Source: Promethearchaeia archaeon (GTDB lineage: Archaea; Asgardarchaeota; Lokiarchaeia; Sigyniarchaeales; SOKP01). Taken from it: 64,000 bases of DNA. The position numbers and the translations under genes are program-made. The notes below the pieces were generated by a model. That model had not been told where the DNA came from. It did no database searches and saw only the letters and a program-made list of their open reading frames with translations. The stretch spans positions 448,001 to 512,000 of the forward strand of contig JAHQWG010000016.1 in NCBI GenBank assembly GCA_029856045.1. The letters run 5' to 3'. Within the stretch, counting starts at the first letter, position 1. Every line of letters begins with the position of its first letter. This document shows positions 1,768 through 20,384 of this stretch, in pieces.

Positions 1768-1769
1768 AA

Positions 1770-2573: not shown

Positions 2574-2597
2574 AAAAGTGAGGATAATAACAAATTC

Positions 2598-3269: not shown

Positions 3270-3403
3270 CTCAAAATATTTTTTCAAATTTTGAATAAAA
3301 TTGAAAATTTAGTAGTTTATATAGATTGAATTGATACTATGTTTGTACAAATTTGGAAATTTAATCACATTATCAAAATAAATTCCAAAAAAGGTTTTAT
3401 TAA

Positions 3404-3664
3404 ATGATAGAGTTGGATAAAAAGACTCAAACTTTTTTATCAAGTAAATTATTATGTGTCTGTCCTCTCTGTAAAAAATACATCTACGGTAAAGATATTG
3501 ACATTACAAAAATTGATTTATCTAAAATCAAAAGATGGCCATTATCAATTGTGCATTGTCATGCACATAATAAACATCCATTACATGCATTAACCATTTA
3601 TCTTGATGCTAATTTCTCAATCCGCGGAAGAGAAGCTTCTGGTTTTTTAAAAATTCAAACCTGA
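3404..3664 (+). CDS. Small putative Zn-binding protein (CxCxxC, HxH...H, YLDANF)
   Basis: 86 aa ORF with CVCPLC, HCHAH, H..YLDANFSIRG; own ATG and upstream AT-rich promoter region. Confidence 0.65.
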   Translation: MIELDKKTQTFLSSKLLCVCPLCKKYIYGKDIDITKIDLSKIKRWPLSIVHCHAHNKHPLHALTIYLDANFSIRGREASGFLKIQT

Positions 3665-3721: not shown

Positions 3722-4693
3722 TTATACATCATAAAATCTTTTAAAAACGCGACATATTGCCAGGTTTAGCCATAGATGCGTATCTTTATCTCGAGCTCCC
3801 ATCATTATTTTTAAATCCCAAAGCCCGTTATTTTGTTGCTTATCTTTAAACCATTGGAGAGCTTTGTCAATTTGCGGCTCATCTTTGCAAAATCCAAGTA
3901 AAGATACAGAATCTAATGATGATAAAAGGTCGGTCCAAAAAAATGGATAATAAAATTTAAACCAATAACTTTTATCCCCCCGAGAGGAATATTTGTCTTT
4001 TTGAAAAAAGCGTGATATTAGAAGTTTTCCAGCTTCCCTCGCTTCTTCCCTCTTTCTGTATTTTGGGTGAGCGGCAAACGTGCGTAACACCATTCCTGTC
4101 AACCAATGAGAGGAGGGCTTCGATTTATCTGGAGGAACAGGATCGGGTAAAGCATAAACTTCTTCCCAAGTAGAATGAATTGTTAACATTGCTAACCCCC
4201 ATCCTCCATCTGTATGACGCATCGAGAATAGCCACTGAAAGCCCCGCTCCATCCTAGGATCATCGTGATAACCCGCCATATTTAACAGTTCCATCAACGC
4301 ACCCATGTAATTCGTCATGTATTGATTACAATATATCCCTCTAATATCACCCTCTTCTGTTTGGCAACTAAAAACATATTCTGCGGCTTTTTGGATACAT
4401 TTATGTTTCTTATTAAACCCATATTTAGGCACTAGTTCTCTTAAACTTTTAAAAGTAGCAAATAAATTCATATTCTCGGGATACTTATGAGGTTTCCTAG
4501 GATGTTTCCACGATCCGTCGTCTAATTGTTTTTTTATTATTTTTTGAGCATATTGTTGATTCCATAAACTTTCGATTGGCTCCACTTCCCTTTCTAGTAA
4601 ATCTCTGTCAACAAAATATTGAATCGCTACATTACCTGAGGAATTCAAATAAGGCAAGGGATCAAATTTTAATTGTTTTTGCCACTCTTTCAT
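3722..4693 (-). CDS. Prenyltransferase/squalene-cyclase-repeat (QW-motif, alpha/alpha toroid) protein
   Basis: Repeats QLDDGSW, QTEEGDI, RHTDGGW, QQNNGLW; no DXDD cyclase motif; starts 16 nt downstream of the uvrA-like gene. Confidence 0.75.
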   Translation of the reverse strand: MKEWQKQLKFDPLPYLNSSGNVAIQYFVDRDLLEREVEPIESLWNQQYAQKIIKKQLDDGSWKHPRKPHKYPENMNLFATFKSLRELVPKYGFNKKHKCIQKAAEYVFSCQTEEGDIRGIYCNQYMTNYMGALMELLNMAGYHDDPRMERGFQWLFSMRHTDGGWGLAMLTIHSTWEEVYALPDPVPPDKSKPSSHWLTGMVLRTFAAHPKYRKREEAREAGKLLISRFFQKDKYSSRGDKSYWFKFYYPFFWTDLLSSLDSVSLLGFCKDEPQIDKALQWFKDKQQNNGLWDLKIMMGARDKDTHLWLNLAICRVFKRFYDV

Positions 4694-4709
4694 TTTTTCT
4701 TCATCAAAT

Positions 4710-7211
4710 TTAGTTTAGATAAGGACCTAATATGGAATGCGAGTTATTTTTTAAATCTTCAGGTGATCCTTCAGCGATAATTTCCCCACCTTCTGGTCCT
4801 CCTCCTGGTCCAAGTTCTACAATCCAATCGGTGAAGGATAAAATATCTAGATCGTGTTCTATTATAATTACGGTATTTCCCTTTTCAACTAATTCTTCAA
4901 GTAAGGTCAATAATTTAGAAACATCGTGAGAATGCAGTCCGGTGCTTGGTTCATCCAAAATAAATAGAGAGTGTGCTTTTTTCTCTTTCCCAAGTTCTTT
5001 AGCCAATTTAACTCTTTGGGCTTCACCGCCACTTAGAGTTAGTGAAGATTGTCCCAATGTTATATATCCCATACCTATTCTATCTAAAATCTCTAAGATT
5101 GAAGCGATTTTAGTTTGATCTTTAAAGACTTCTAATGCTTCCTTAACTGTTAAATTTAACACTTCTGTAATTGTCTTTCCCTTGTATTTCACATCGAGAA
5201 TTTCTGGTTTGTACCTTTTACCTTTACATTCATTGCATAGAATCGATAATCCAGGCAGGAACAGCGAAATTTGTAGATCCTGATATCCATTACCTTTACA
5301 AGCTGGGCACCGTCCCTTGTCGGAATTGAAACTAAAATGTCCAGCTTTATATTTTTTCCTTTTAGATAGTGGTTGTTTTGCAAATAAATTTCTTATTTTA
5401 TCCCATATACCTATGTAACTTGCTGGGAAGGAAGTTCTAACGCGACTGAGAGGTTTTTGATTTACAATAATAACTTCATCGATATCTTGCCACCCGATTA
5501 AATCTCCAGAAGTGGTTAAATCTCCCTCTAACCCATTTTCAACTTCCTTTAATGCCCCTATATTTTTATTGCTATTCTGTCTTTCAAAATAAGGTGTTAT
5601 TAAGGGAATTAATGTATCTGTAATAAGTGAACTTTTACCACTTCCTGATACGCCTGCAATTCCTATCATTACACCTAATGGAATGTCTATTTTAACATTT
5701 TTTAAATTATGTGTATTAACATTTTTAAGAGTTATTTTGGGATTATTTTTTGAAATTTTCCTTCTTTCATCAGGCTTCTTATTAGGAATTTTCAGTTCAC
5801 CACGTAGATATTTGCCAGTAATCGATCGTTTGGACTTTATAACACCTTCTAAAATTCCCTGATATACAATTTCTCCACCTTCATTTCCCGCTCCAGGACC
5901 CATATCGATTATCTCATCAGCGATGGATATTAGCTTTTTATCGTGTTCGACTACAATAATTGTATTTCCCAAATCTTTAAGTGAATTTAGCGCTTTAATG
6001 AGATTATTCTTCTCTATTTCATGAAGACCCATCGTAGGTTCGTCCAAAATATATACTAATGAATCTAACCCAGAATCAAGATGGTTCATTAAAGCTAACC
6101 TACTTATTTCTCCCCCGGAGAGTGTTGGTAATTCCCGGTTTAAGTGAATATATGGAAGTCCAACATCCACAATACTTTTTAACTTTTTTAATATCAAATT
6201 TTTAAGACCACGACCTTCAGATACTTTTATATGGGAATTATTTAGTCCCTCCAAGAACTCTATCAACTCAGTAATAGTCATCATTGCCAATTCACCTATA
6301 TGTTTTTCGTTTATTTTAATCTCTCGAGAACGATCGTTTATCCTATACCCACTACATTCAGAACAAATTTCCTTTTTCATGTAATACTTAGTAATTTTTC
6401 TCCTCCTATAATCACTTGTACCAGAAGTTATAGCTCGTTCAATATGGGGTATTATTCCTTCAAATTTTCTTGCTCTCAATACTCCCGAGAATGTTTTGGA
6501 TTCCCATCTAAAATTTAGTTTCTTATTGCTTCCATATAAGAATAAATGCTTAATCTCCTCTGGTAGGTCTTTATAAGGAGTATCGATATTAAAATTGAAT
6601 ATATCTCCCAATTGTTCTACCCAGTGGAGCTGATCAGCAAAACATCCAGATCCAGCTTTTGTAATCTCAATTAAGTTTAAGTTTGGGTCTTTAACAATTA
6701 AATCTTCGGTAAAATGCATAATATATCCCCTCCCTTTGCATTCCAAACACATTCCCGAAGCTTCATTGAAACTAAAATGTTTTATTTGTAGCGGTTCAAC
6801 CTGCATACCACATATGTCACACTCTAATGCTGGCTTTTCGACTGGTTCCTTGCAAATAGGACAAGTTATTACACCTTCTATTGCATAAAGCATTCTTAAT
6901 AGATTATATATAATAGTCTTAGTACCAACTGTGCTTCTAGGATTAGAAATTCTCGTTGTTCTCTGTTCTACAGCGATTGTAGGACTCAATCCAGTAATCA
7001 TATCGAATGGTGCCTCATCACTCCCTCGTGGTGGATAACCAACTGCTTGCATATATCTCCTTAATCCCTCATTAAATATGGTATCAAATGCTAAGCTTGA
7101 CTTTCCAGAGCCACTAACTCCTGTTATTAGTACAATTTTATTTTTTGGTATCGAAACATCAATATTTTTTAAATTATGTATTCTTGCCCCAATGATCTTA
7201 ATTTCATCCAT
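4710..7211 (-). CDS. uvrA: Class II UvrA-like ABC ATPase (DrrC/Ecm16-type, lacks UvrB-binding domain)
   Basis: GARIHNLKN, two GVSGSGKSS Walker A motifs, two LSGGE signatures, LDEP motifs, Zn fingers; CPIC..CDICG runs straight into FSFN with no UvrB-binding insertion; 833 aa. Confidence 0.9.
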   Translation of the reverse strand: MDEIKIIGARIHNLKNIDVSIPKNKIVLITGVSGSGKSSLAFDTIFNEGLRRYMQAVGYPPRGSDEAPFDMITGLSPTIAVEQRTTRISNPRSTVGTKTIIYNLLRMLYAIEGVITCPICKEPVEKPALECDICGMQVEPLQIKHFSFNEASGMCLECKGRGYIMHFTEDLIVKDPNLNLIEITKAGSGCFADQLHWVEQLGDIFNFNIDTPYKDLPEEIKHLFLYGSNKKLNFRWESKTFSGVLRARKFEGIIPHIERAITSGTSDYRRRKITKYYMKKEICSECSGYRINDRSREIKINEKHIGELAMMTITELIEFLEGLNNSHIKVSEGRGLKNLILKKLKSIVDVGLPYIHLNRELPTLSGGEISRLALMNHLDSGLDSLVYILDEPTMGLHEIEKNNLIKALNSLKDLGNTIIVVEHDKKLISIADEIIDMGPGAGNEGGEIVYQGILEGVIKSKRSITGKYLRGELKIPNKKPDERRKISKNNPKITLKNVNTHNLKNVKIDIPLGVMIGIAGVSGSGKSSLITDTLIPLITPYFERQNSNKNIGALKEVENGLEGDLTTSGDLIGWQDIDEVIIVNQKPLSRVRTSFPASYIGIWDKIRNLFAKQPLSKRKKYKAGHFSFNSDKGRCPACKGNGYQDLQISLFLPGLSILCNECKGKRYKPEILDVKYKGKTITEVLNLTVKEALEVFKDQTKIASILEILDRIGMGYITLGQSSLTLSGGEAQRVKLAKELGKEKKAHSLFILDEPSTGLHSHDVSKLLTLLEELVEKGNTVIIIEHDLDILSFTDWIVELGPGGGPEGGEIIAEGSPEDLKNNSHSILGPYLN

Positions 7212-7284
7212 ATTTTATCAAAATCACTTTCATCTAATAATTTTATTTTTAATTGAATTAAATTGCATAATATTTGTAATAAAT

Positions 7285-7324
7285 ATATTCCAATCATAGA
7301 ATATTATATCATAAGAATATATAA
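7285..7324 (-). promoter_or_regulatory. Operator array ATATT(C/A)-N8-GAATAT x2 overlapping the TATA box of the uvrA-like gene
   Basis: ATATTC caatcata GAATAT TA tatcataa GAATAT (7285-7320); minus-strand TTTATATA at 7317-7324; same architecture as 20328-20384. Confidence 0.7.
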
Positions 7325-7368
7325 ATATTATCATTTTTAAAAAATTAAAATATCATTCATGATATATT

Positions 7369-7715
7369 TTATGCTGAATGCTTAAATAATCTAAATTTGA
7401 GAAATATATCTCGATAAATATTGAAAATTTTTACTTGTTTTCTGCGATTATAGCTTTCACAGAATGATATTACAATCTCTTCTTTTAATCTAAATGCAAT
7501 ATTTTCCGATTTATCTTCTTTATCTCTTACTTTGTTCAAAATATTTTTTTTTTTCGTGAGGATTATTAAAAGAAACAGTAGATAAAACAATTAAAAATTC
7601 TTTCCGCAATCTGGGTATTTATTATAAAAAAGATAAATGATTAATTCTATCTTTTTGGTTAATTCGTTTATCTTCTATAATTTCAATAATTTTCCCATCG
7701 AATCCTTTTTTTTAA
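7369..7715 (-). pseudogene. Possible decayed small gene
   Basis: Minus-strand frame KKGFDGKIIEIIEDKRINQKDR...YPDCGKNF* continues in frame into the 73-aa ORF (..FCESYNRRKQ), resembling eroded CxxC knuckles. Confidence 0.25.
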
Positions 7716-8022
7716 TTCTAATTAAAAGTGAACCAAAATATAAAACTCTGAGAATTATGATATATAAATAAAATAAAAATTGTTTTAAATAAAATAATAA
7801 TCTTAAAACATCCACCAATTTAATCAAGATACTATTTAAATCAATTTTAAAGGAAGATATTTTTTAAAAATTAGAAAATAAATGTGCAGTAAGGGAAAAT
7901 TTTTCGATTTAGAGTGATTCTTTTAAACACTTGAAATTTTTAATTCATAAAGCAAGAGATAATCAAAAAATAATTCTTTTTTTATCCTAAAATTTATATT
8001 TTTGGAATTTATTTATAATAAT

Positions 8023-9330
8023 ATGAAAATCCTTTCTCAAATTCTAATTTTTATAATCTTTATGATTATTATTGTTTCATATACTAAAGAAAAATGGGAT
8101 TTTGTGAGTATTTCGCTATTAGGAATGATAATATGTGCTTTGATCGTTGGAGTTTCTAATTCTCTAACAATTGAGAATTTCATAGAATTTGTTGAAATTG
8201 AAGCATTAATTCTGATTTTAAGTATGCAAATAATAACCCAAATCGCTCGAGAATCCAATATTATAGAATATTTTGCTATTAGAATGTTTAGGCTCTCGAA
8301 AGGCAACCAGCATTTTTTCTTATATACAATTTGTTTAACTGGTGCATTTTTAGCAGCAATTATCTCAGATGTAATTGTAGCAATTATTCTTGTACCTGTA
8401 ATAATTAGGATTTGTAACTTTTTAAAAATAAAAGCTGGGACTTATTTACTAGCTTTAACAATCGTTATTAATATAGGTAGCCTTTTTACTCCATTTTCTT
8501 CTGGAGAAAATATAATAATTTCCCAGCATTTTCAATTAGATACAAAATTTTTTATCACATACTATTGGGGATTTTCTTTTATCGTTCTTTTTTTAACGAT
8601 ATTTTTAGTTGATTACTTTATTCTTAGAAAAGAACCAAAAATTGAAATTGCAAGGAAAGAATTATTATTAGAGATTTTAAACCCATCTATTGTAATAACT
8701 AATAAAAAATTATTTTATTTCAACACTTTAGTTTTTTTCGGGACGATAATTTCATTTATTTTTATATCTCAGATGTATATTATTGCACTAATCTCATCAA
8801 TGATATTAGTCTTAGTTAACAATAGACATGGGGAAGTTCCGTTAAAAGAAGTATTAAAAAAAATTAATTGGGAGATCATTTTTTTCTTTATCGCCATGTT
8901 TATCGTTATTGGGTGTATGCGGGAAATCGGAATATTTAATATTTTTCAATTACAATCTTTACAAAATTTTAATCCAATTATTGTGAGTATAATGATGTTA
9001 TTATTAGTGAGTTTCCTCTCGGGATTATTAGCAAATACACCTATAATGTTAATTTTTTTGCCTATAATTGATAATCTAATTAGTAATTTTAATTTTCCCT
9101 CAATTCCTTTAGTTTTTTCATTATTAGTTGCTGTAAATCTAGGTGGAAATATTTTACCTCAAGGTGCTATGTGTGATGTGTTAACCCTAAAAATAGCACA
9201 AGAAAATAACGTTAAAAATCTTACCTATAAGAGATTATTGAAAAATGGAGCAATTTTTGCATTAATTCACATATTAATATCCTCAATAATATTGATACCC
9301 CTCACAATATTATTCCCTAATGGTGTATAA
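8023..9330 (+). CDS. ArsB/NhaD/SLC13 (ion transporter superfamily) permease
   Basis: About 11-12 TM; INIGSLFTPFSSGENII, SGLLANTP and VNLGGNILPQG hairpin motifs; ATG 8023 preferred over TTG 8002. Confidence 0.85.
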   Translation: MKILSQILIFIIFMIIIVSYTKEKWDFVSISLLGMIICALIVGVSNSLTIENFIEFVEIEALILILSMQIITQIARESNIIEYFAIRMFRLSKGNQHFFLYTICLTGAFLAAIISDVIVAIILVPVIIRICNFLKIKAGTYLLALTIVINIGSLFTPFSSGENIIISQHFQLDTKFFITYYWGFSFIVLFLTIFLVDYFILRKEPKIEIARKELLLEILNPSIVITNKKLFYFNTLVFFGTIISFIFISQMYIIALISSMILVLVNNRHGEVPLKEVLKKINWEIIFFFIAMFIVIGCMREIGIFNIFQLQSLQNFNPIIVSIMMLLLVSFLSGLLANTPIMLIFLPIIDNLISNFNFPSIPLVFSLLVAVNLGGNILPQGAMCDVLTLKIAQENNVKNLTYKRLLKNGAIFALIHILISSIILIPLTILFPNGV

Positions 9331-9725
9331 AAAAAGATACAGAAAAAATTTCAACTATTATTATTATAATTTTTATAATAATCCTAGTTTCTTATAACAA
9401 AAAAGAGATTGACTATATAAATGTTTCAATTTTAAGTATGATTTTATGCATATATATAGTAAATCTAAACTGCTTTAAGATATTTTTTAGATTTTATTCG
9501 ATTTAAAGCGATTTTATTTTTTAAGTATATTTGAGAAGATCTAAAATTTCTCTAAGAAATATTTAATATAAAATATGGGAATTCAATTTATTAATTTATT
9601 CTTTCAAAATTAATTCAAGTACATGAATTCCCGAGATTAATTGATAAAGTTTGGGATACAGGTGTGGTTCTATAGAGAATTGCAATCCATCTATTTTTTA
9701 GTTTTAAACTCTTCCAATTTAAAAA

Positions 9726-10751
9726 TTAGATTTGTTTTTTTTCTTTTTTTAAGATTGATTCATAGACGCTAATATAATCGTCCACCATCCTTTCGACATT
9801 AAATTTTTTTTCAACCCATCTACGACATTCTGAACGATCAATTTTATTAACTTTTTTTAATGCATTAACAGCCTCTTCAATAGAATCGACTAAAAATCCG
9901 GTTTTTCCGTCTGCGATTACTTCAGGCATACTCCCCTTATTAAAAGCAATTACAGGCGTTCCGCACGCCATTGATTCCACAACCGACAGACCGAATGCCT
10001 CTTGAACATTAATAGGGTGCAATAAAGCAAAAGCGCCTCCTAATAATTCATTCCTCTTTTTTGGACCAGCAATACCGACGTATTTTATTAAATCATTATC
10101 AAGAAAAGGTTCGATATTTTCTTTATAATAACCTTTATCCTGGATAATCCCTGCGAAAATTAATTTCATTCCAACTTTTCGAGTGATTTCGATAGCTTCT
10201 TTAGGACCTTTATCCTGATGAATACGACCAAAAAATAATAAATAATTTTCAGGTTCAGAATTAAAAGTAAATTGGTTTAAATCTATACCGTGATAAACCG
10301 TAGCGATATAATCAAGATTAGGATCCCTAGCAGCATTGCTAATGGAAACATAATAGCTTTGATTGTTGTATTTTTTATAAACTGGTAAAATTTTGGGAGA
10401 AGAAAAGCCATGGATTGTTGTTACGACTGGGGTTGATGCCATTTTCATATATGTTAAAGGAAGATAATCAAAATGATTGTGAATGATATCAAAATCATTT
10501 CCTCTTTCGAACATTTCAGATATATGTAAACATTCCCAAACCTTTGGTATTAATTCATTATCTTCTTCATAACCCTGAGGGCAGACACTCACAAGATGTG
10601 CTTTAGTGATAGAATTCTTTGTCGCAAATAAGGTAACTTCAATTCCTTTCTCAACAAGCCCTTCTGTTAATAAAGAGACTATATATTCCCATGGACCATA
10701 AGATCGAGGAGGTGTTCGCCACGCAATTGGTGAAAGCATTGCTACGTGCAT
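9726..10751 (-). CDS. Glycosyltransferase family 4
   Basis: PPRSYGPWE, TVYHGID, FGRIHQDKG, EAFGLSVVESMACGTPV. Confidence 0.92.
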   Translation of the reverse strand: MHVAMLSPIAWRTPPRSYGPWEYIVSLLTEGLVEKGIEVTLFATKNSITKAHLVSVCPQGYEEDNELIPKVWECLHISEMFERGNDFDIIHNHFDYLPLTYMKMASTPVVTTIHGFSSPKILPVYKKYNNQSYYVSISNAARDPNLDYIATVYHGIDLNQFTFNSEPENYLLFFGRIHQDKGPKEAIEITRKVGMKLIFAGIIQDKGYYKENIEPFLDNDLIKYVGIAGPKKRNELLGGAFALLHPINVQEAFGLSVVESMACGTPVIAFNKGSMPEVIADGKTGFLVDSIEEAVNALKKVNKIDRSECRRWVEKKFNVERMVDDYISVYESILKKEKKQI

Positions 10752-11701
10752 TGTTTCCCTCCTGATAATGAATTATGTTTTTTAAGCCATTCAAGAAGTT
10801 CTGAGATACTAGCTGTTGCTAAAGCAATACAACTATCAGCACATCCATAATAAAGTAAGATATCATCATTTTTTTGGATCCAACCGCAGGGAAAAACAAT
10901 TTTATCTACATCACCATATGTCTCGTAAGATTCTTTTGGAGAAAAAACCCATTCGTCAGATCTCGCGATTAAGTTGCGAGGATCTTTTAGATCTAATAGT
11001 GCCAGTCCCAATCGATATATGACACCACTGACAGTAGTTTTTACCCCATGATAAAGAATTAACCAACCCTCATCAGTTCTTAAAGGTGGAGGTGATAAAC
11101 CAATTTTTTTTGCATCCCACCAGCTACCTTTCCTAGCACTAATAAGGACCTGATGATCCCCCCAATGTTTAAGATCCGGAGAAAATGAGATCCAAATATT
11201 AGCTTTTTCTGTTAACATGTATGAAACTGGCCGATGAATCATTGACCAACGTCCATTAAAGCGAATTGGAAACAATGCAGCATCTTTATTTTCTGGTGGC
11301 ATCACAGGGCCATAACGAATAAAATTTTGGAAGTCAGTAGTAGTAATTAATGAAATTAAAGGGCCATCCTTGGAGTAAGCTGTGTATGTAATAGCCATAA
11401 TTCTTTTTTCCTCTAAAAAGACAACTCTGGGATCTTCAATACCCCAAATTTCTTCAGGGTATTTATCTGGATTGGGTGTTAAAGTTGGTTGATTATCAAT
11501 TTGCCAATCATTTATACCATCTTTACTTCGAGCCAATGTTAGATGTGATATTCCTCGTCTATCTTCAACTCGCATTAATAAAAAAATTTTGTTGTCTAAT
11601 TTTATTGCACCAGCATTGAATACTGAATTTGCCATATAAGGAATATCATTGATGGAGATAATTGGATTATGTGGATAACGTTGAAAAAGTTCTTTTATCA
11701 T
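10742..11701 (-). CDS. GH130 family glycosidase/mannoside phosphorylase
   Basis: NPII, VFNAGA, GIEDPR, ENKDAALFP, LILYHGV, YYGCAD; five-bladed propeller family motifs. Confidence 0.9.
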   Translation of the reverse strand: MIKELFQRYPHNPIISINDIPYMANSVFNAGAIKLDNKIFLLMRVEDRRGISHLTLARSKDGINDWQIDNQPTLTPNPDKYPEEIWGIEDPRVVFLEEKRIMAITYTAYSKDGPLISLITTTDFQNFIRYGPVMPPENKDAALFPIRFNGRWSMIHRPVSYMLTEKANIWISFSPDLKHWGDHQVLISARKGSWWDAKKIGLSPPPLRTDEGWLILYHGVKTTVSGVIYRLGLALLDLKDPRNLIARSDEWVFSPKESYETYGDVDKIVFPCGWIQKNDDILLYYGCADSCIALATASISELLEWLKKHNSLSGGKQCT

Positions 11702-11725
11702 ATTATTTTTTATTTTTATCAACCT

Positions 11726-12952
11726 TTAAAATTCGGGTTCTATTATTATTGGTTTTTTAGAGATTTTAGCATTTCGTGCTAAATCGTAAGCCTGATTATA
11801 CTTGTTAGCAATTATTTCCCATGAAACAACCTCCTCAAGGTAGCGCTTTAAATTTTCACCAAACGTCATTCGAAGATTCTCATCACATGCTAATCGAATC
11901 ACATTTTCCTTAAGCATTTTTTTTGTCGTAAATAATAAACCACCACCACTTTCCAAAGTTTGTGCAGTTAATCCTTCCATTGGAGCTGTTGTGGCATAGG
12001 GTTTATTCAAAGCTATTATTCTTGCTAATGTTCCAGATTGTGTTTCGTCTATTGTTGGTAATATAATGAAATCGCAGATTGCCATCACTTTATAATAGAT
12101 ATCACCTCTTGGGATAAATTCGTAATAATGTGCAATCCCCTTGTCTTGAAGCTTAAGAACATCAGACTTCCACATTTCATAATCATGTTGATGGTTTGGA
12201 TCACGTAAAGTACCTGCAGCAAATAAATCCCATTTCTGACCACAATTTTTTATAATTTCTTCATGAATATCATCCCACATTGAAAGTAGAATATCCCATC
12301 GTTTATTGGTTTGTATCCATCCAATCATTCCCACAAGATGATCTGACAAATTTAAAGAATTTAAACCCAATTCAATTTTTAAATTATGAATTTCGTCAAT
12401 CCCCCACCTTTTATCAGGTCGTGCACCATGTGGCACCACCATAATGTTTTTTGGGGTTTCCCAACCTCTTTGTCTAAAAGACCAGTCCAATCTCCACTTT
12501 TGATAATGACACTTAAAAAAAACAATATCGCTTCTCTCACACATTTCATAAATAAATTCTGCTTCAAAATCATTAATTCGTCCATGAATTGTATGCGGTT
12601 CAACTACAAGGGGATAATGATCAATAGCCTCAAGAAGATTAAGAAAACCTTCATTTCTATCACCTATACCACGTTTATCCTTGTATTCATACAGCCCATA
12701 TTCGTGTTGTAAATGAATTGCATATGGGTCCAATTCATTGATTTTTTCCACTACAGGTTCATACCAATCGTATCTGTTTATCTCAATTAAAGGAAAAACA
12801 CCTTCTCCTTCTCCATCTGTGTGGCTAATTACCATTACATCCCTATTAGGATTAGCTTTTTGGATGAATTCTCTTGCTTCCTCAGCAAAAGTTGCGATCC
12901 CACAAAGTCGTGGTGGATAAGAACTTATCATAACAATTGGTTGATTAGACAT
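11726..12952 (-). CDS. Glycosyltransferase family 4-like protein
   Basis: SSYPPRLCGIATF, HLQHEYGLY, VVPHG, ETQSGTLA; ATG 12952 follows a GGTGAG RBS. Confidence 0.85.
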   Translation of the reverse strand: MSNQPIVMISSYPPRLCGIATFAEEAREFIQKANPNRDVMVISHTDGEGEGVFPLIEINRYDWYEPVVEKINELDPYAIHLQHEYGLYEYKDKRGIGDRNEGFLNLLEAIDHYPLVVEPHTIHGRINDFEAEFIYEMCERSDIVFFKCHYQKWRLDWSFRQRGWETPKNIMVVPHGARPDKRWGIDEIHNLKIELGLNSLNLSDHLVGMIGWIQTNKRWDILLSMWDDIHEEIIKNCGQKWDLFAAGTLRDPNHQHDYEMWKSDVLKLQDKGIAHYYEFIPRGDIYYKVMAICDFIILPTIDETQSGTLARIIALNKPYATTAPMEGLTAQTLESGGGLLFTTKKMLKENVIRLACDENLRMTFGENLKRYLEEVVSWEIIANKYNQAYDLARNAKISKKPIIIEPEF

Positions 12953-12959
12953 TTTTCTA

Positions 12960-15257
12960 TTACTCACCCACTTTTTCTGTTAAATCAATTTCAGTTAAAT
13001 TATCTAATGAATACATATTTAAAAGGGATAATAACCAAGCTAATGTTGATTCAGCTCCTTGATTTATATTAGGACCAGTAGATGTTATAGCATCATAACA
13101 CCCTCCAGTTTTATAGTTATAAAGCGGAGTATTCAAATCATTTCTACCTAAAAACCATTCTATACAACGACGTGCTTCCATGATCCATTTTTTATCTTGA
13201 GTAATTTTAAACGCCTCAACACACGCTTCAAGTATACTCTGAGCCTCAAGAGGTTGTTGATCAAATCTCGCTTTTTCTCCGTTTCGAGGATGCCATCCAG
13301 AATTACCGATTGGAGTAAGCTGTCCTTTATGATTCGTTTGAATTTTAATTAACCACTCTAATGACCTTAATCCAGCTTCAACCATATCTCCTCGCTGTAG
13401 CCATTGTCCAGACATTACCAAAGCTTGTGGAATTTTTCCATTATCATAAGTTAAAATGTCTTCTATCCACAACCACTCATCACTAGCATTTGAACAGTAA
13501 AAATCAAATAAACGATTGGCTATTTTTTCTCTAAATCGTTTTATTTTACTATCACCTCCAAATCTTGCCAGATAAGCATGAATTCCTACCAGACCAAAAG
13601 CTAAAGCTCTGGGAGAATTAAAGTCTGAAAGAACTGATACAGCTCTATTAAAGATAGTCAAAGCTTGATCTCCAAACTCTTTTATTTTTGCTAATGCTAC
13701 AGTAATTCCTAAACCCCAGATAGCCCGACCATGACAATCTTCAGAGCCTTTATCTTCAAGCCATTTACGATCATAACCTAAAAAATTTCGAAATCGGCTA
13801 TTTTTATCATTAAAAGCGTGTAGTAAAAAACTTAGATAACGACAATCAAGATTCTCTAATAAATCATCTTCAAATGACAAATCTTGAGCTAAAAGTATTA
13901 CAATTAATGCCCTTGCATTATCATCTGTGCAATAACCATGTTTGCGATTGGGTACAATAAAATTAGCATGCTGTAAAATGCCAACATCATCTGTCAACCT
14001 ATAAAGATGATCAAATTTAGGTTGAGGCATTTCGAATGAAGCAGATCGTAAGGATTTCATCCTAACAATAGTTTTTGGTCGCGATAACCGTTTTTCAACA
14101 ACTTCCGCAAATATCTCAATATAATTTCGAGCAACTTCCCTCCAAATCATATCCCTAGAAAATAAATAGGCTTTTTTACGCATAGTATGTCTCTCAATTT
14201 CGTTATCCAATAATTTAACAATTTGATCAGCCATACTATCTGGATCTTTGAAGGGTACGATTATTCCCTTTCCGTCAGCTAAAATTTCCTCAGCATACCA
14301 GTAAGGTGTAGAAATTATAGCTTTACCCGTTCCAAGAGCATATGCAAGTGTGCCAGAAACGATTTGCTCCTTGTTTAAATATGGAGTAACATAAATATCC
14401 GCAGTTCCTAAAAATTCACATAACTCCTTTAATTCTACAAATCTATTATAGAAAACTATATGATCTTCCACACCAAGCTCTCTGGCTCTTATCTGAAGAG
14501 AATGGCGATATAATTCGCCTTGTTCTTTCTTTATATTTGGATGAGTTGCCCCAAGGACGATATATATCACATCCGGATGTTTTTGGATAATTTTAGGTAA
14601 TGCATTAATCATTATCTCTATCCCCTTGCCAGGATTAATCAGACCAAAGGTTAAAATTACATTCTTACCTTCAACTCCAAATTGGTCTTTAAAAAAATTT
14701 GGATCAATAAATGGAACATCTGGGATACCGTGATGAATTACATTAATTTTTTCTGCAGATATCTTATAGATTTCTTTTAAAAGTGTTTTGGCATGATGGC
14801 TCATAACAATTAATCGATCTGATACTTTATCTATTGTTTTAATTATCTTTCGAATTCTTGGCTGAGGATTTGGTTGAAGAGTATGCAATGTCGACACAAT
14901 CGGCATGTGCAAATTACGAAGTAATGCTAAAATATGGCTTCCGTAATCCCCTCCATAAATCCCAAATTCATGTTGTAAACAAACGACATCAATGTCATTA
15001 ACATTGAGAAACTCAGCAGCTAATTGATAATCTGCCAATCGATTAACATTTAATTCAAAACGAACTTGTTTAGGATAAGAATAACCTTGAGGCTTATCAT
15101 TCATAGCAATTGCCCAGCATGTACTTTGTCGTAACTCATTTGAAATTGCTTGCAAGAGATCGTTTGTGAAAGTTGCAATACCACATTGGCGTGGTATATA
15201 ATTGCCAATAAAAGCAATATTTTGCAAATTTGGATGATATCGTCTTTTTAAGCTCAT
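12960..15257 (-). CDS. GT4 glycosyltransferase fused to a C-terminal six-hairpin (alpha/alpha)6 glycosidase-like domain
   Basis: N-half PRQCGIATF, QHEFGIYGG, SGTLAYA; C-half GILQHA, YCTDDNARAL, FDQQPLE, NQGAESTL. Confidence 0.88.
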   Translation of the reverse strand: MSLKRRYHPNLQNIAFIGNYIPRQCGIATFTNDLLQAISNELRQSTCWAIAMNDKPQGYSYPKQVRFELNVNRLADYQLAAEFLNVNDIDVVCLQHEFGIYGGDYGSHILALLRNLHMPIVSTLHTLQPNPQPRIRKIIKTIDKVSDRLIVMSHHAKTLLKEIYKISAEKINVIHHGIPDVPFIDPNFFKDQFGVEGKNVILTFGLINPGKGIEIMINALPKIIQKHPDVIYIVLGATHPNIKKEQGELYRHSLQIRARELGVEDHIVFYNRFVELKELCEFLGTADIYVTPYLNKEQIVSGTLAYALGTGKAIISTPYWYAEEILADGKGIIVPFKDPDSMADQIVKLLDNEIERHTMRKKAYLFSRDMIWREVARNYIEIFAEVVEKRLSRPKTIVRMKSLRSASFEMPQPKFDHLYRLTDDVGILQHANFIVPNRKHGYCTDDNARALIVILLAQDLSFEDDLLENLDCRYLSFLLHAFNDKNSRFRNFLGYDRKWLEDKGSEDCHGRAIWGLGITVALAKIKEFGDQALTIFNRAVSVLSDFNSPRALAFGLVGIHAYLARFGGDSKIKRFREKIANRLFDFYCSNASDEWLWIEDILTYDNGKIPQALVMSGQWLQRGDMVEAGLRSLEWLIKIQTNHKGQLTPIGNSGWHPRNGEKARFDQQPLEAQSILEACVEAFKITQDKKWIMEARRCIEWFLGRNDLNTPLYNYKTGGCYDAITSTGPNINQGAESTLAWLLSLLNMYSLDNLTEIDLTEKVGE

Positions 15258-15519
15258 AACAATCTATTATAATTTTTTGACTAAGATTTTAAATTCTTAT
15301 TGACTTTAAGAAGTTATATTTATATTTGTATTCGAAAATTTTTAAATTTTAAGATTATTTTAAGATTTTAGATTTAAATTTTAATCCTTTAAATGTTTAT
15401 ATTAATATTTTAAGAGTTTAAAACTAACAATTGAGAACTAAATTCAATGTGGTAAAATCATCAAAAATTAAGAGTAAATTAAGGAAAAAACAAAAATTCA
15501 TTATTATTTTAATATCAAT

Positions 15520-15776
15520 CGTGCTCTTCCACTCCACAGCAATTATGGAGTTCAGCCTATTAAATATATCAAATGGTACTTCATCACTTCACCCTGAAGG
15601 ATAACCATCTGCTTGCATATATCTCCTTTATTCCTCATCAAATATAGTATCAAAGGCTAAACTCGACTTTCTAGAGCCATTACTCCAGTTATTAATACAA
15701 TTTTGTTTTTTGATATCGAAAAATCTATATTATTAAGATTATGAATTTGAGCACCATTTATTTCTATTTTATCCAC
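15520..15776 (-). pseudogene. uvrA: Degenerate 5' fragment of a uvrA-like gene (paralog of 6955-7211)
   Basis: GTG 15776 after a GAGG RBS: MDKIEINGAQIHNLNNIDFSISKNKIVLITGV / 1-nt deletion / GSRKSSLAFDTIFDEE*RRYMQADGYPSG*SDEVPFDIFNRLNSIIAVE; 25 of the first 32 aa are identical to the intact copy. Confidence 0.92.
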
Positions 15777-15806
15777 TTTTTATCCCTCTTTCTACATTTT
15801 TTTCTT

Positions 15807-16430
15807 TTAGATAAACGGTTGCCTTATAACGGTTCTCAGCTTTTCTGGAGCAATTTTTCTAGGATCACTTAGATAAATCTCGTGATGTTTTTGCTTATTT
15901 CCGTCAAATTTACCACCCTGTTTCTCGATAAACTCATGAATTTTATCAATTGTTGGTCCTTCATCTGTGAACGATCCAATATGCAAGATTTGAGCGCATT
16001 TTCCCTCTTTGTACTTTTCAAGTCGAAGATTAGATATCACAGTAGGAATCTGAGGCTTTTTTTCCATAGTAATTTTAATGGCTTCGTCAATCATTTTTTG
16101 AGTAATCCAATCAGGTTGCATTATTATCATTGTCCACTTCCATTTATCTCTGTGCCCTGCTCTAAAATCTCTCATGTCATCAGCCCACCAGAGTCCTTCT
16201 AAAGGGGGAACTACGTAATCTTTACCTTTTGCTTTGCTAAGAAATTTAGTTTTAAATGCTACGGGGTAAAGAACGGCAAGTGCATCTAAGTATTCTTTTG
16301 AATCACCAGGTGAACCCATTCCATCTATCATTAGGAATTGAAAAACTGGAACTTCAAGAACTACAACCTCATTTGTGTCTGGTTTATACAATTTTTTATA
16401 TTTATTCTTAAAATCTACTTTAGTCACCAT
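15807..16430 (-). CDS. GyrI-like small-molecule-binding protein (Lin2189/YtkR7-like cyclopropanoid hydrolase group)
   Basis: FLMIDGMGSP, DYVVPPLEGLWW, WKWTMIIMQP, HIGSFTDE, HHEIYLSDPRK...LRTVIRQP. Confidence 0.88.
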   Translation of the reverse strand: MVTKVDFKNKYKKLYKPDTNEVVVLEVPVFQFLMIDGMGSPGDSKEYLDALAVLYPVAFKTKFLSKAKGKDYVVPPLEGLWWADDMRDFRAGHRDKWKWTMIIMQPDWITQKMIDEAIKITMEKKPQIPTVISNLRLEKYKEGKCAQILHIGSFTDEGPTIDKIHEFIEKQGGKFDGNKQKHHEIYLSDPRKIAPEKLRTVIRQPFI

Positions 16431-16471
16431 TTTTTCTTTCCAATTTATTCTATTATTCTTTTTAATTTGTT

Positions 16472-16900
16472 TTAAGTTATATTTGGATTATATTTATAAC
16501 CGCAGTCATAACATTCAGAATCATGAACACAAATTTCCCCTCCACATTCTGGACAAGTATATAGAATTGCTTGTTCCCCAACCCATTTATTAACTCCTAC
16601 TTCTTTTATTTTCTTTAAATTTTCTAATAAACTAACATTATACCTTGTAAGGTATATATTATCCATTCTCTTCAAATTTTGGCAGGGAAATTTTTCACAT
16701 TCAAAACAATATTCAATTTCTTTCTTTCTTAATTGCGGACAATCTCGTACTATAAAAGCACATTTCTTATTTTGAAGGATACAACCTTTACATCCTCTTT
16801 TATAACCTTTAATTTTTAATAAATCTTTTTTTAATACCAAGTAGGTTCTACATGCTCCACAATATATCCCACAATGACCAACTAAATATTCACTTTTCAT
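16472..16900 (-). CDS. DUF3795-like Cys-rich protein with C-terminal zinc ribbon
   Basis: CGIYCGAC...CKGC...C....C...YCFECEKFPC, terminal CPECGG..CYDCG. Confidence 0.8.
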   Translation of the reverse strand: MKSEYLVGHCGIYCGACRTYLVLKKDLLKIKGYKRGCKGCILQNKKCAFIVRDCPQLRKKEIEYCFECEKFPCQNLKRMDNIYLTRYNVSLLENLKKIKEVGVNKWVGEQAILYTCPECGGEICVHDSECYDCGYKYNPNIT

Positions 16901-16912
16901 ATTAGATCACTT

Positions 16913-18052
16913 TTATAATTTAATTTTTGATAATTTTTTAAACAAATCTTTCTCATTACTTAAAATATACAAAGCTGTATTGCCTAGTTCATTGAAATCT
17001 ACATGATTTAGGCATTCACTTTCATATTTGTCCGCCGCATTTTTTAATGTTTCTGCAATAAGCGTCCAATTTTGAGCAGAATTATTAATTAATGGCAAGG
17101 ATTCCTCGAGTATCCTAAATTCTTCTTTATTCCACGCTTTAGGTCCTTCTTTAAGCTCTGGATGATCTATTAGTTCTTCCAAGAATTCCTTGTATAACTT
17201 ACGAAAAGCACTCCCCCCTGTACCCCATGTTTCGATGTAACCATGAGTTAATTCAAACATTAATCTCGCTAGGGAAATAATTTTACCATTATATGGATTT
17301 TTAATACTGCCTTTCAAAGTTTCGCCCCACTTGGGAATAGAATTGGCAAATAAGTTTAAACCTTGAATACCGATATTATTTATGGAAGGTCTTAACATAT
17401 TATTAACAACTTCTTGTATTGCAAGTTTAACTCCTGCTGCCAGTGGTGGATGTTTTCCATCTGGGCGCCTTTCCATAGAAAATTGCGTATTTTCTGGAAA
17501 CATGAATGAATCCCCCTCTCTAGAACTTCTTCCCTCCTTTAAAATTTCAATTGGAACTTCTTGAAATCCTTCAAATTCGGTATCACCTACATATGCAACT
17601 CCTTTTTCTTCGTCATATCCGCCTAATGTTATCGCATGTCCACCAAAATGTATTTCTTGTTCGTGCTCATAGAAAGGTAAGTAGCCAATATCAACCTTGA
17701 GAATTAATGGTATATTCTTGCTTAATAGAATTTTCGATTCTTGCCACGCTTTATCTGCACTTGAGAATGATTGCTTCCTCAACTTAATTCCTAAAACTCT
17801 ACATGCTAAAGAATTTGGCTCAATTTTTCCTTGTTTTCCTCCCACAAAGAAAGGGATCTCATTAACTACGCCATCTAAAGTTGATAACTTGTTTGTTTTA
17901 TCATAAAAACCAAATCCCATTGTTGCATCGAGCCCGAAAGCCATTGCTTCTGACATCGGAAATCCGTAAAATTCAAATAAATCTCTCATTGCGGACGATT
18001 CGCAGTGAAATCCAACTTTATGACTGAAGTTCTCAACCATTAGTCTGACCAT
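16913..18052 (-). CDS. BtrH N-terminal / DUF4872 family papain-like Cys-His protein
   Basis: GFHCESSAMRDL, SEAMAFGL, DIGYLPF, HFGGHAITLGGYD, TWGTGGSAFRKLYKEFL; ATG 18052 follows a GAGG RBS. Confidence 0.82.
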   Translation of the reverse strand: MVRLMVENFSHKVGFHCESSAMRDLFEFYGFPMSEAMAFGLDATMGFGFYDKTNKLSTLDGVVNEIPFFVGGKQGKIEPNSLACRVLGIKLRKQSFSSADKAWQESKILLSKNIPLILKVDIGYLPFYEHEQEIHFGGHAITLGGYDEEKGVAYVGDTEFEGFQEVPIEILKEGRSSREGDSFMFPENTQFSMERRPDGKHPPLAAGVKLAIQEVVNNMLRPSINNIGIQGLNLFANSIPKWGETLKGSIKNPYNGKIISLARLMFELTHGYIETWGTGGSAFRKLYKEFLEELIDHPELKEGPKAWNKEEFRILEESLPLINNSAQNWTLIAETLKNAADKYESECLNHVDFNELGNTALYILSNEKDLFKKLSKIKL

Positions 18053-18636
18053 GGTGTCTTTTCCTCCTCGATTTTTTCTAACATCCAATTTATAAATTCA
18101 ATATGAGTTTCCATCATTTTTATAGGGCGAACGAAAAGAGCTTTAATATTCAATGGATACATGCCCCATTGTGTCATTGATTGTTGTCTTGATATCTTTT
18201 CTTTTTTATTCAGCATTTCAATATCATTTTTTATAATTTCAACTGAATTTTTAAAAGCTCTTATCAATTCCTCTTTAGATAATAATGGATACATTGAAAG
18301 TGCTATATCATAATCATGATCTCTTCGACCCTTAAATTCACTTATAACTTTGTAAACCTTATTTTTTAAGATGACAAACCCAAAATCTGTTATTCTATAG
18401 ATTTTTCGAATTCTATTATCAACTTCTTCAATATACGATTCAACCAATTTATCCTCCTCCAACTTATTAATAATTTTATATATTGATGAGGTTCCAATTT
18501 CGGTCCAATCTCTCATTCCTCTCTCATCTATTCTTTGATTAATACTATAAGCATGGCTTGGTGTCTCGGAAACTAAACCCAATATTACAAACGCTCGATG
18601 ATTTAATTCGTATTCGTTTCTAAAATCTCTTTCCAT
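18040..18636 (-). CDS. PadR family transcriptional regulator
   Basis: VILGLVSETPSHAYSI...IGTSSIYKIINKLEEDKLV...RKIYRITDFG winged HTH plus C-terminal helices. Confidence 0.9.
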   Translation of the reverse strand: MERDFRNEYELNHRAFVILGLVSETPSHAYSINQRIDERGMRDWTEIGTSSIYKIINKLEEDKLVESYIEEVDNRIRKIYRITDFGFVILKNKVYKVISEFKGRRDHDYDIALSMYPLLSKEELIRAFKNSVEIIKNDIEMLNKKEKISRQQSMTQWGMYPLNIKALFVRPIKMMETHIEFINWMLEKIEEEKTPWSD

Positions 18637-18640
18637 TTTA

Positions 18641-19795
18641 TTACCCCACAATATTATTCAGTGTTGAAAACGCAATTTTATCTTTTTCATACACTTGCAT
18701 TATCTTATCTTTGATATCTCTTAATAGTAATTCAATATCCTCTTCCTCTGAATTATCTAACTTTTCTGCAGCTTCTATCATAACTTTTTCTGATTTTTTA
18801 GTAATTTCCCTCATTTTTTTCAATGCCCCTGGCTTTTGTTCTTCAAAAATTTTATTTTTTTCAACCGCCAATTCTCGTGACTTTTTAAGCAAAGGCCATG
18901 AATCGGGAAGAGCTGCAATAGCGAGTTCACTCCAATATTTTCCAGCTTCTTCAAATAATTTAACAGCATCCATTAATTTTGGTTCATCTAATATTAAACT
19001 CGATTCTTTTAAAAATTGCGCATATGTATTGCGATATCCCCCACCTCCTGAACCACTTTCTTCAATAAAGATATAAGTATTGAGAAGACACCCAAATAAA
19101 TTTAATCCTTTAAATTGTTTCGGCCAAGATAAAACAAGACCTGCCCACTTCTTAATACCCAGTTGACCAATATTTTTTATTGGAGGATATAAATAATTAT
19201 CTATACATTCCTTAATTGCATCTGTTATTCCACTTTTTAAATTTTTGAGTTTTATAGGATATTTTATTTTTAGGATTTTATGTTTAGGAGCGTAAGGTGG
19301 ATACTTCGAACTTCGCGCCTTTTTTAAATCTTCAATAGAAATTATTAATGGTGTTTTTGCAGCATCAGAAACATAAACTTTATCTTCTTTCTCATCAAGA
19401 CCATAAACAACAATTGAATGAGCAACTCCTGGAAGAGCAAGATAAGGAAGATATGCCATGTCCGCGAATACAAATACGGGTTCTCCCTCGCGCAAAACAT
19501 TTATCAATTCTTCATAACCTCTTTTGATACTAGTAGTCTCAAAAATTGTTGCGTCGCCGCCAATCCGCTGGCAAGTTTTTATTAAAGAATTAGTCTTCCC
19601 ATACCTAGTACCAATAAACGGTGCGAGCATCATTTTCATATACCAATACATAAAACCAACTCCAGCACCTAGACCAAAAATCATTTCTTCGGAAAATTCT
19701 AAGTTATGATACGCAAATAGATTCCTTAGAGACGTGGTCCAACAATGAATACCGCCAATATGCCTATAATTTTCAATAATTAACTTTTCATTCAT
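18641..19795 (-). CDS. BtrH N-terminal / DUF4872 family papain-like Cys-His protein (paralog)
   Basis: GIHCWTTSLRNL, SEEMIFGLGAG, DMAYLPYL, HSIVVYGLD, ESGSGGGGYRNTYAQFL. Confidence 0.82.
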   Translation of the reverse strand: MNEKLIIENYRHIGGIHCWTTSLRNLFAYHNLEFSEEMIFGLGAGVGFMYWYMKMMLAPFIGTRYGKTNSLIKTCQRIGGDATIFETTSIKRGYEELINVLREGEPVFVFADMAYLPYLALPGVAHSIVVYGLDEKEDKVYVSDAAKTPLIISIEDLKKARSSKYPPYAPKHKILKIKYPIKLKNLKSGITDAIKECIDNYLYPPIKNIGQLGIKKWAGLVLSWPKQFKGLNLFGCLLNTYIFIEESGSGGGGYRNTYAQFLKESSLILDEPKLMDAVKLFEEAGKYWSELAIAALPDSWPLLKKSRELAVEKNKIFEEQKPGALKKMREITKKSEKVMIEAAEKLDNSEEEDIELLLRDIKDKIMQVYEKDKIAFSTLNNIVG

Positions 19796-19836
19796 TTTTT
19801 TCAGATTTTCATTTTATAATTTTCTTAAAAAAAAAA

Positions 19837-20280
19837 TTAATATTTATGAAATTTTCTCCCATAAATAAGAAAAGCAAGAATATATGTCTCAATTATTATA
19901 GCTGGATAGAAGTATCCTGTGGTTGTTTCGATCCAGAAATAGGATAGCAAATTCCTTCCCATAATGCCGAAAAATAATGCATCTAATAAGAAATTCATTC
20001 CACAAATGATTACACCAAGAATAATTGCATCAATCGCCCATTTATTAGCTATAATAGGATTATTTTGTTCATATTTCCAAATATATAATGCAAATATTAC
20101 TATACTCACTATCGCATTAATAAATATCATTGTCACATAAACCCCAATATTAGGATTTGCAATGGGTTGATTAGTGGTATAGTCAAAAAATGCTGACCCT
20201 ACAATCATAAATGCCCAGAACCACGCCAAAAGTCCAAGAATAATTGCCAATATCAAGGATTTTTTATTAATTTCGCTTAT
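19837..20280 (-). CDS. 4-TM membrane protein, first gene of the PadR operon (probable ATA start at 20280; TTG at 20256 is the alternative)
   Basis: Four hydrophobic helices; in-frame ATA AGC GAA ATT AAT AAA AAA after AAGGGA; in-frame TAA at 20305-20307. Confidence 0.75.
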   Translation of the reverse strand: MSEINKKSLILAIILGLLAWFWAFMIVGSAFFDYTTNQPIANPNIGVYVTMIFINAIVSIVIFALYIWKYEQNNPIIANKWAIDAIILGVIICGMNFLLDALFFGIMGRNLLSYFWIETTTGYFYPAIIIETYILAFLIYGRKFHKY

Positions 20281-20327
20281 ATTTTTTCCCTTTATTTTAT
20301 TGATTTATATATTTAAATGTTGATTTA

Positions 20328-20384
20328 ATATTCTAATTACAGAATATTATCAATATAGAATATTATGAGTCAAGAATATTTAAA
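20328..20384 (-). promoter_or_regulatory. Operator array ATATT(C/A)-N8-GAATAT x3 overlapping the TATA box of the PadR operon
   Basis: ATATTC taattaca GAATAT TA tcaatata GAATAT TA tgagtcaa GAATAT; AATATT at 20327, 20343, 20359, 20375 (exact 16-bp period); minus-strand TTTAAATA at 20377-20384. Confidence 0.78.

Follow-up and report, generated by a model that had tools for sequence, protein, structure and literature searches.

A PadR-linked split operon in an Asgard archaeon as a candidate inducible defence against DNA-targeting small molecules

Introduction

In the chromomycin gene clusters, the gene for CmmRII, a PadR-like repressor, has as neighbours the genes for a UvrA-like protein and an ATP-binding cassette (ABC) exporter (PMC5992853). 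This module of CmmRII (PadR), CmrX (UvrA-like) and an ABC exporter has the closest known regulatory logic to that of the locus analysed here, which lies in a 64,000-nt stretch of low G+C DNA (about 28%) from an Asgard archaeon (positions 448001-512000 of contig C27, in a genome of 3.34 Mb and 55 contigs; hereafter, the window) and is made up of two separate gene units, A and B, with padR in the first and an 833-aa UvrA paralogue in the second. Both this locus and the aureolic-acid module of Streptomyces (CmmRII/SrcmRII, CmrX/SrcmJ of 825 aa, and CmrAB) combine a PadR-family repressor with a UvrA paralogue of about 830 aa, and an ABC-2 exporter is present in each case (CmrAB there, a DrrAB-type exporter near the regulon here). 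Nevertheless, the Streptomyces module sits in an actinobacterial polyketide cluster, whereas the window has an archaeal host and no biosynthetic cluster; the window cargo goes further, with BtrH-like, DUF3795, GyrI-like and toroid proteins; and no PadR operator was found in front of the window exporter.

Other described systems resemble individual parts of the locus. PadR-type operators have the form ATGT-N8-ACAT, and in LmrR-LmrCD and PadR-PadC, as here, the repressor gene accompanies the detoxification genes under its control. The inverted repeat of the window shares their 4-N8-4 geometry (ATTC-N8-GAAT), but it has another half-site, is repeated in a triple 16-bp-phased array over an archaeal TATA box, and precedes other cargo. 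The class II UvrA proteins (UvrA2 of Deinococcus radiodurans, 2vf7; Ecm16, 7sh1; DrrC) have in common with the UvrA paralogue of the window (UvrA2 in what follows) a length of about 830 aa, the lack of a UvrB-binding domain, the presence of both ATPase sites and coexistence with a canonical UvrA. Ecm16 gives echinomycin resistance in an ATPase-dependent manner that is independent of nucleotide excision repair (NER), and class IIa UvrA proteins are described without the first zinc finger (PMC9328131), a difference from UvrA2, which retains the four Zn1 cysteines. Finally, Lin2189 and YtkR7 are cyclopropanoid cyclopropyl hydrolases of the GyrI-like subfamily, with known residue roles (PMC5684135), and CtaG, AsbE, BtrH, CcbD and AziU3-U2 are papain-like transacylases that use carrier-protein thioesters and depend on carrier proteins.

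Our literature search found no paper combining PadR, UvrA and Asgard archaea, and no description of a system of this kind; for the domain DUF4872 no paper was found, and for DUF3795 a single passing mention. In this work, we compare the locus with its relatives in Asgard archaea, other archaea and bacteria, and we favour, with moderate confidence, its interpretation as a defence, under PadR repression and probably inducible by xenobiotics, against small molecules that react with DNA or bind to it; the biochemical roles of the components are inferred. Three features are particular to the window: a division into two units whose operators are homologous, a Lin2189-type hydrolase in the slot that a methyltransferase fills in other genera, and a pseudogene that documents the ancestral gene order.

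Results

Two gene units behind one operator array

The gene content was assigned by Pfam, which returned each gene named in an earlier reading of the sequence alone (the sequence-only reading), and the uvrA remnant noted there is real. Unit A, on the minus strand, starts from promoter A (20327-20384) and contains, in this order, a four-transmembrane (4-TM) open reading frame (ORF; 19837-20256), a first protein with BtrH_N and DUF4872 domains (BtrH-like 1; 18641-19795), the PadR repressor (18040-18651), a second protein of the same domain composition (BtrH-like 2; 16913-18088), a DUF3795 protein (16472-16900), a GyrI-like protein (15807-16430) and a 5' remnant of uvrA2 (about 15520-15776). Unit B, also on the minus strand, starts from promoter B (7269-7325) with the gene for UvrA2 (4710-7211), followed 16 nt on by the gene for a 323-aa QW-repeat protein (3722-4693). 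The Asgard assignment proposed from the letters agrees with the relatives, since a member of the same family encodes actin and the sister genome (WORB4) is that of a Promethearchaeia archaeon.

In promoter A, three half-sites AATATTCT (20373-20380, 20357-20364 and 20341-20348) lie exactly 16 bp apart and are followed by an inverted half AGAATATT at 20327-20334, the whole array forming three interlocking AATATTCT-N6-AGAATATT palindromes, of which the first half-site overlaps an archaeal TATA box, TTTAAATA (20377-20384). Promoter B has good half-sites at 7314-7321 and 7298-7305, followed by two degenerate ones as far as 7269, and its TATA box, TTTATATA (7318-7325), stands in the same register to the half-sites. 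That both units carry one operator array had been proposed from the sequence, and a genome-wide search bears this out: the 25-nt core ATATTCTT-N5-ATAATATTCTAT has exactly two perfect matches, promoters A and B, and with up to two mismatches allowed the sole further match falls inside array A. The octamer AATATTCT by itself is at chance level in the window, with 14 occurrences against 15 expected; the significance is confined to the phased array. The similarity of the two promoter regions extends past the motif itself, with a local alignment score of 66 over about 115 nt (3000 composition-matched controls gave 29.7 +/- 5.1, with a maximum of 55), and, among significant blastn hits, each promoter is the best match of the other in the genome (78% over 60 nt).

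Two other near-matches were considered as operators and rejected. A phased pair with one mismatch at 8265-8288 of the window falls within the CitMHS transporter gene. Between genes, the genome has just one more near-match, AATACTCT-N6-AGAATATT, on another contig (C25:36111-36132, locus L078), flanked by divergent Imm63-like and ParA/CbiA-like genes; being a single site with one mismatch, it was taken as probable chance and not as a further member of the regulon.

The operator is conserved in relatives. The sister genome has the identical four half-sites with changed spacers, and among 18 other family members, 11 have the palindrome, at up to two mismatches, in the 280 nt that precede padR, often with 16-nt phasing (controls: 22 of 2508 windows, 0.9%). 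At the promoter of padR itself a palindromic operator is thus present, positioned over the TATA box and kept in relatives, and PadR is predicted to bind it. Within the family there are three operator variants, with AATATTCT, ATCATTCT and GGTCTC cores, and these track changes in the helix (HAY to HGK) and the wing (R to L/I/V) of PadR irrespective of genus (the loci compared include L042, L044 and L080 versus L048, L082 and L085). This co-segregation fits PadR as the cognate binder, and the way in which the operator classes cut across genera suggests either horizontally exchanged operon lineages or old paralogous ones. From an operator that is conserved and, in this genome, unique to the two promoters, the prediction that units A and B form one regulon is supported.

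Origin of the split

Beginning 30 nt beyond the GyrI-like gene, the uvrA remnant spans about 255 nt, carries a 1-nt deletion in Walker A as well as in-frame stops, and is 78% identical over 253 nt to the 5' end of the intact uvrA2. In the sister genome, BtrH1-PadR-BtrH2-toroid-DUF3795 (two copies)-GyrI-UvrA2 are contiguous up to the contig end. The point where the remnant meets the GyrI-like gene has its orthologue in the intact GyrI-UvrA2 junction of the sister, which identifies the remnant as the original uvrA2 cistron, and because GyrI and UvrA2 are contiguous there, the window can be read as a split operon, the ancestral form being, on this comparison, a single operon. Unit B would then have kept, or regained, its PadR-type promoter after physical separation from padR, and operators shared by the pieces of a split operon read as natural evidence for co-regulation. 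The promoter pair and the pair of uvrA 5' ends have diverged alike (both about 78% identity). An old operon duplication, or the acquisition of a second copy, with reciprocal losses thereafter, fits the locus; a recent insertion as the cause of the split fits less well. The 790-nt gap that precedes promoter B was searched for traces of further genes of the operon, and none were found.

Conservation of the gene set

Homologues of BtrH-like 1 occur in 173 of 400 genomes of the phylum, and synteny was studied in a sample of 40 loci of up to 20 kb each. In the family to which this archaeon belongs, all 21 loci have one co-oriented cluster of the form BtrH2-(toroid)-(DUF3795)-(BtrH1)-(SAM methyltransferase)-UvrA2, where SAM stands for S-adenosylmethionine, with PadR at its head in 19 of the 19 loci not cut at a contig end. 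These clusters often continue with two further divergent UvrA-like units and a toroid protein. Many family members have three tandem UvrA-like units (L041, L044, L048, L080, L081, L086, L088 and L098), one of them 60-65% and the other two only 33-36% identical to UvrA2 of the window; the toroid that follows, scored where the locus was long enough, is only 24-30% identical to the QW protein of the window and was not seen in L081. Elsewhere among Asgard archaea we found PadR-BtrH-GyrI (Hermodarchaeota), PadR-BtrH-UvrA2-BtrH, and PadR-BtrH followed at some distance by UvrA-UvrA-toroid (Thorarchaeota).

Outside Asgard, the BtrH family (46-59% identity) extends to Dehalococcoidia, Verrucomicrobiota, Planctomycetota, Aminicenantia, Thermodesulfobacteriota and others, as well as to the archaeal Bathyarchaeia, Theionarchaea and Methanofastidiosia. 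There, padR lies directly upstream of the BtrH gene in at least 24 of 59 species, a GyrI-like gene of the Lin2189 type is adjacent in 12, and one Anaerolineae contig has the order PadR-GyrI-QW-BtrH. The accessory slots differ, with a SAM methyltransferase in place of GyrI, or a GNAT protein or a flavin mononucleotide (FMN) reductase beside BtrH in other phyla, and such variable slots are typical of detoxification islands. The sequence-only reading had named a lack of co-occurrence elsewhere as a ground for its own refutation; the genes clearly recur together in Asgard families and in bacteria, so that on this ground the reading is not refuted.

PadR and the first gene of unit A

The 203-aa, two-domain PadR protein has a winged helix-turn-helix domain (PF03551, 52.7 bits against a cut-off of 27). 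Its gene overlaps both neighbouring BtrH-like genes, and the pairing of PadR with adjacent BtrH-like genes recurs within Asgard, in other archaea and in bacteria. In two other genera padR is flanked by ABC ATPase genes (loci L046 and L049).

The 4-TM protein, which the sequence-only reading had counted in the operon, does not belong to the conserved set. It has no Pfam or NCBIfam match; homologues (56-70% identity) are found in 10 of 134 family genomes, from three other genera, in unrelated contexts, and none was found in the sister genome, its operon included. By these homologies the ORF is a real gene and a lineage-specific addition, which stands directly behind the PadR-controlled promoter in this genome only. 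The homologues begin MNKKS..., the matching codon here (in 20257-20275) being ATT, not ATG, and it is uncertain whether the true start is this ATT or the downstream TTG at 20256.

A GyrI-like protein of the Lin2189 type

The claim that the GyrI-like protein is of the Lin2189/YtkR7 type held in every residue compared. It matches Lin2189 (3B49) with E = 8e-50 and about 50% identity, and the alignment retains equivalents of the full aromatic cage (Y46, W85, W99, F154 and Y187) and of the catalytic Glu pair (E157 and E185); in 10 PadR-linked GyrI-like homologues, archaeal and bacterial, neither the Glu pair nor the Tyr varies. Unlike the described enzymes, the present protein is archaeal, under predicted PadR control and unlinked to a yatakemycin-type cluster. 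It is predicted to be a cyclopropanoid cyclopropyl hydrolase, or it may instead, by analogy to CtaZ or the albicidin binders, act by sequestration. A hydrolase of this type narrows the candidate inducers to alkylators with a cyclopropane warhead and similar planar DNA binders.

A UvrA paralogue without the UvrB-binding domain

UvrA2 has, in its sequence, two Walker A motifs, two LSGGE signatures and two Walker B motifs, all intact, and three intact zinc modules. Its alignment with D. radiodurans UvrA2 (2vf7) covers the full length, and that with class I UvrA falls into two stretches with about 130 aa missing: the UvrB-binding domain is gone (model positions 129-252), and relative to the class I UvrA of the same genome about 10 aa replace residues 126-255. 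That canonical UvrA is encoded beside UvrB on another contig (C35). The Zn1 cysteines, CPIC117 and CDIC131, match those of class I Zn1 and are conserved in all 11 orthologues. Of the earlier assignment to class II UvrA, the absence of the UvrB-binding domain stands, while membership in the DrrC/Ecm16 class IIa does not, by Zn1 and by alignment scores. We treat UvrA2 as working like a class II UvrA, by analogy, and outside the DrrC/Ecm16 clade; it probably represents an independent loss of the UvrB-binding domain.

The QW-repeat protein (PF13243) is modelled by AlphaFold2 (AF2) as a confident alpha/alpha-toroid with QW repeats (predicted local distance difference test, pLDDT, of 94). Foldseek returns only generic toroids (squalene-hopene cyclase, SHC; drimenyl-diphosphate synthase; the RabGGTase beta subunit), weakly, with template modelling (TM) scores of at most 0.5, and the DxDD motif of class II terpene cyclases is absent from the 323-aa sequence. 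The family is found inside the bacterial PadR-GyrI-QW-BtrH operon and adjoins UvrA in a close relative; the subtype of the window occurs also without UvrA. The closest homologues outside Asgard (54-57% identity) lie directly after a PolB-family gene of about 595 aa, in a euryarchaeon (L073:596-2377) and a methanogen (L074:5205-6995), with methyltransferase, GNAT and ferredoxin genes downstream of QW in the latter and a ferredoxin gene in the former, a second link of this toroid family to DNA enzymes.

BtrH-like and DUF3795 proteins

A sequence search of the PDB with BtrH-like 1 gave nothing useful; the fold search alone was informative. The AF2 model (pLDDT 89.5) has the bipartite BtrH-like fold, with a papain-like N-domain and a helical C-domain, and its top Foldseek matches are AziU2-U3, CtaG and CcbD, with probability 1.0 and over the full length of both domains. 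Among 39 homologues, C18 and H126 never vary and D144 is kept in at least 90%; the three residues lie at nearly the same positions as the Cys-His-Asp triad of CtaG (C11/H128/D144), by analogy with which D144 would be the triad Asp. The sequence identity to the transacylases of the CtaG/BtrH type is only 12-15%; those enzymes depend on carrier proteins, whereas no carrier protein is encoded near this locus, and no carrier-protein or adenylation gene was found in the operon or in the sampled relatives. In further contrast to the biosynthetic linkage of these relatives, the genetic partner of BtrH-like genes, in archaea as in bacteria, is a PadR repressor. BtrH-like 2 is a paralogue (about 28% identity to BtrH-like 1) with HC and GGH motifs, whose probable start is an internal ATG near 18052, and its orthologues (57-71% identity) are present in all sampled family loci.

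The DUF3795 protein contains 15 Cys, with a CxxxCxxC motif at residues 10-17 and a C-terminal zinc-ribbon-like motif, and by these motifs probably binds a metal or an Fe-S cluster. DUF3795 is kept in most family operons; no characterised relative was found, and the atlas look-up returned its own family alone.

Neighbouring genes

Convergent to unit B, at 799-3664, are an ORF of 86 aa rich in Cys and His, a LysE translocator and the DrrAB-like ABC-2 exporter (799-2573), whose ATPase is a weak match to the DrrA C-terminal domain. The presence of this exporter supports the defence interpretation; an operator array was looked for upstream of it and was not found. The same LysE/ABC-2 neighbourhood beside UvrA-QW is repeated in a close metagenomic relative (locus L076). 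The 8.2-kb block between the two units (7330-15519), for which no link to the regulon was detected, contains the CitMHS transporter gene (8002-9330, plus strand), three glycosyltransferase genes of the GT4 type and a GH130 gene, including a tightly packed GT4/GT/GH130/GT4 operon at 9726-15257 on the minus strand. Farther away, a 663-aa protein with a C-terminal RING-type zinc finger (weak Pfam matches) is encoded at 22998-24989, near proteasome and histone genes.

Discussion

The interpretation that we favour is that of a defence, repressed by PadR and probably induced by xenobiotics. PadR dimers would bind the phased AATATTCT-N6-AGAATATT operators cooperatively at both promoters and, lying over the TATA boxes, would block the access of TBP/TFB, until a ligand, as the behaviour of the family suggests, releases the repressor. 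Derepression of unit A would provide two papain-fold Cys-His-Asp enzymes of acyl transfer or hydrolysis, the Cys-rich DUF3795 protein, and a Lin2189-type hydrolase that would open the cyclopropane warheads of alkylators of the CC-1065/yatakemycin type; derepression of unit B would provide a UvrB-independent UvrA paralogue that may recognise and clear drug-loaded or distorted DNA using ATP, with the alpha/alpha-toroid protein expressed alongside it. We infer the ligand induction, the modification of toxins by the BtrH-like enzymes, the DNA clearing by UvrA2 and any role of the QW and DUF3795 proteins.

Several observations weigh against this interpretation. Linkage by itself predicts that padR is inherited together with its own promoter, and would yield the same co-segregation of operator and PadR substitutions. 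UvrA2 scores about 660 bits against class I UvrA, 517 against D. radiodurans UvrA2 and 451 against Ecm16, and it keeps the Zn1 cysteines; because of this closeness to class I and the retained Zn1, its equivalence to DrrC/Ecm16 is one of analogy, not orthology. The nearest structural relatives of the BtrH-like proteins, moreover, are biosynthetic, carrier-protein-dependent enzymes or ligases, and not resistance enzymes.

In one alternative, the product of the cluster is an endogenous small molecule, made or tailored there by the BtrH-like proteins as ligases or transacylases, with help from the methyltransferase, DUF3795 and a terpene-cyclase-like toroid; the GyrI-like and UvrA-like proteins would serve self-resistance, and PadR would be the pathway repressor, as it is in chromomycin clusters. 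The best fold matches do all come from biosynthesis (AziU3/U2 from azinomycin, CtaG from closthioamide and CcbD from celesticetin), a homologue in a Clostridium isolate lies between a radical-SAM gene and two methyltransferases, and PadR with a UvrA-like protein and an ABC transporter is a known self-resistance module within gene clusters. We nevertheless regard it as unlikely, given that neither the operon nor the roughly 40 Asgard loci contain a carrier protein, an adenylating enzyme, a non-ribosomal peptide synthetase or polyketide synthase (NRPS/PKS) or any scaffold-forming gene, that the commonest form, PadR and BtrH with or without GyrI, is too small for a pathway, and that the QW protein lacks DxDD. 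A repair operon for endogenous lesions (e.g. DNA-protein or aldehyde adducts), with UvrA2 as the sensor, the papain-fold proteins as proteases and no sensing of xenobiotics, would account for the UvrA-like genes being the most conserved cargo of the family, in up to three tandem copies, and for the QW family lying also beside a PolB-like gene in methanogens, and a papain fold is compatible with peptidase activity. Such an operon would hardly be expected, however, to be under PadR control with GyrI-like, methyltransferase, GNAT and FMN-reductase partners, which indicate small molecules; the PadR-BtrH core is also present in many genomes without a UvrA-like gene, and the bipartite tunnel architecture is that of small-molecule transacylases, so that we judge this explanation quite improbable.

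It is also conceivable, with a very low probability in our estimate, that the shared motif is a relic of segmental duplication without regulatory meaning, and that the two units are functionally unrelated neighbours. One old duplication would fit the common identity of about 78% in the promoter regions and in the uvrA 5' ends, but at that level of divergence it is the half-sites, together with their register relative to the TATA box, that have been preferentially kept, the operator is conserved across genera though the spacers change, and in all the other family genomes sampled the PadR operon includes UvrA2 as a cistron.

Beyond the inducible defence proposed for this locus, a wider proposal can be made, which we hold only tentatively and consider rather doubtful: that PadR and BtrH_N/DUF4872 form a pan-prokaryotic sensor-effector core of xenobiotic inactivation, in which the papain-fold enzyme directly inactivates a DNA-targeting natural product (and would thus represent a new class of resistance enzyme), and that in Asgard archaea this core was extended, by a separate lineage of UvrB-independent, Zn1-retaining UvrA paralogues and by toroids, into an NER-independent machine for clearing DNA.

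The split operon offers a clean, testable prediction, namely one repressor acting on two promoters through the same operator. The system is partly built from families without known function (BtrH_N/DUF4872, DUF3795 and the QW toroid), and a function assigned here would annotate many genomes, including those with the PadR-BtrH core in Dehalococcoidia, Verrucomicrobiota, Planctomycetota, Bathyarchaeia and others. If the defence interpretation is true, a dedicated, inducible DNA defence against the natural genotoxins of anoxic sediments would be kept by many members of the Asgard archaea, the prokaryotes most closely related to eukaryotes.

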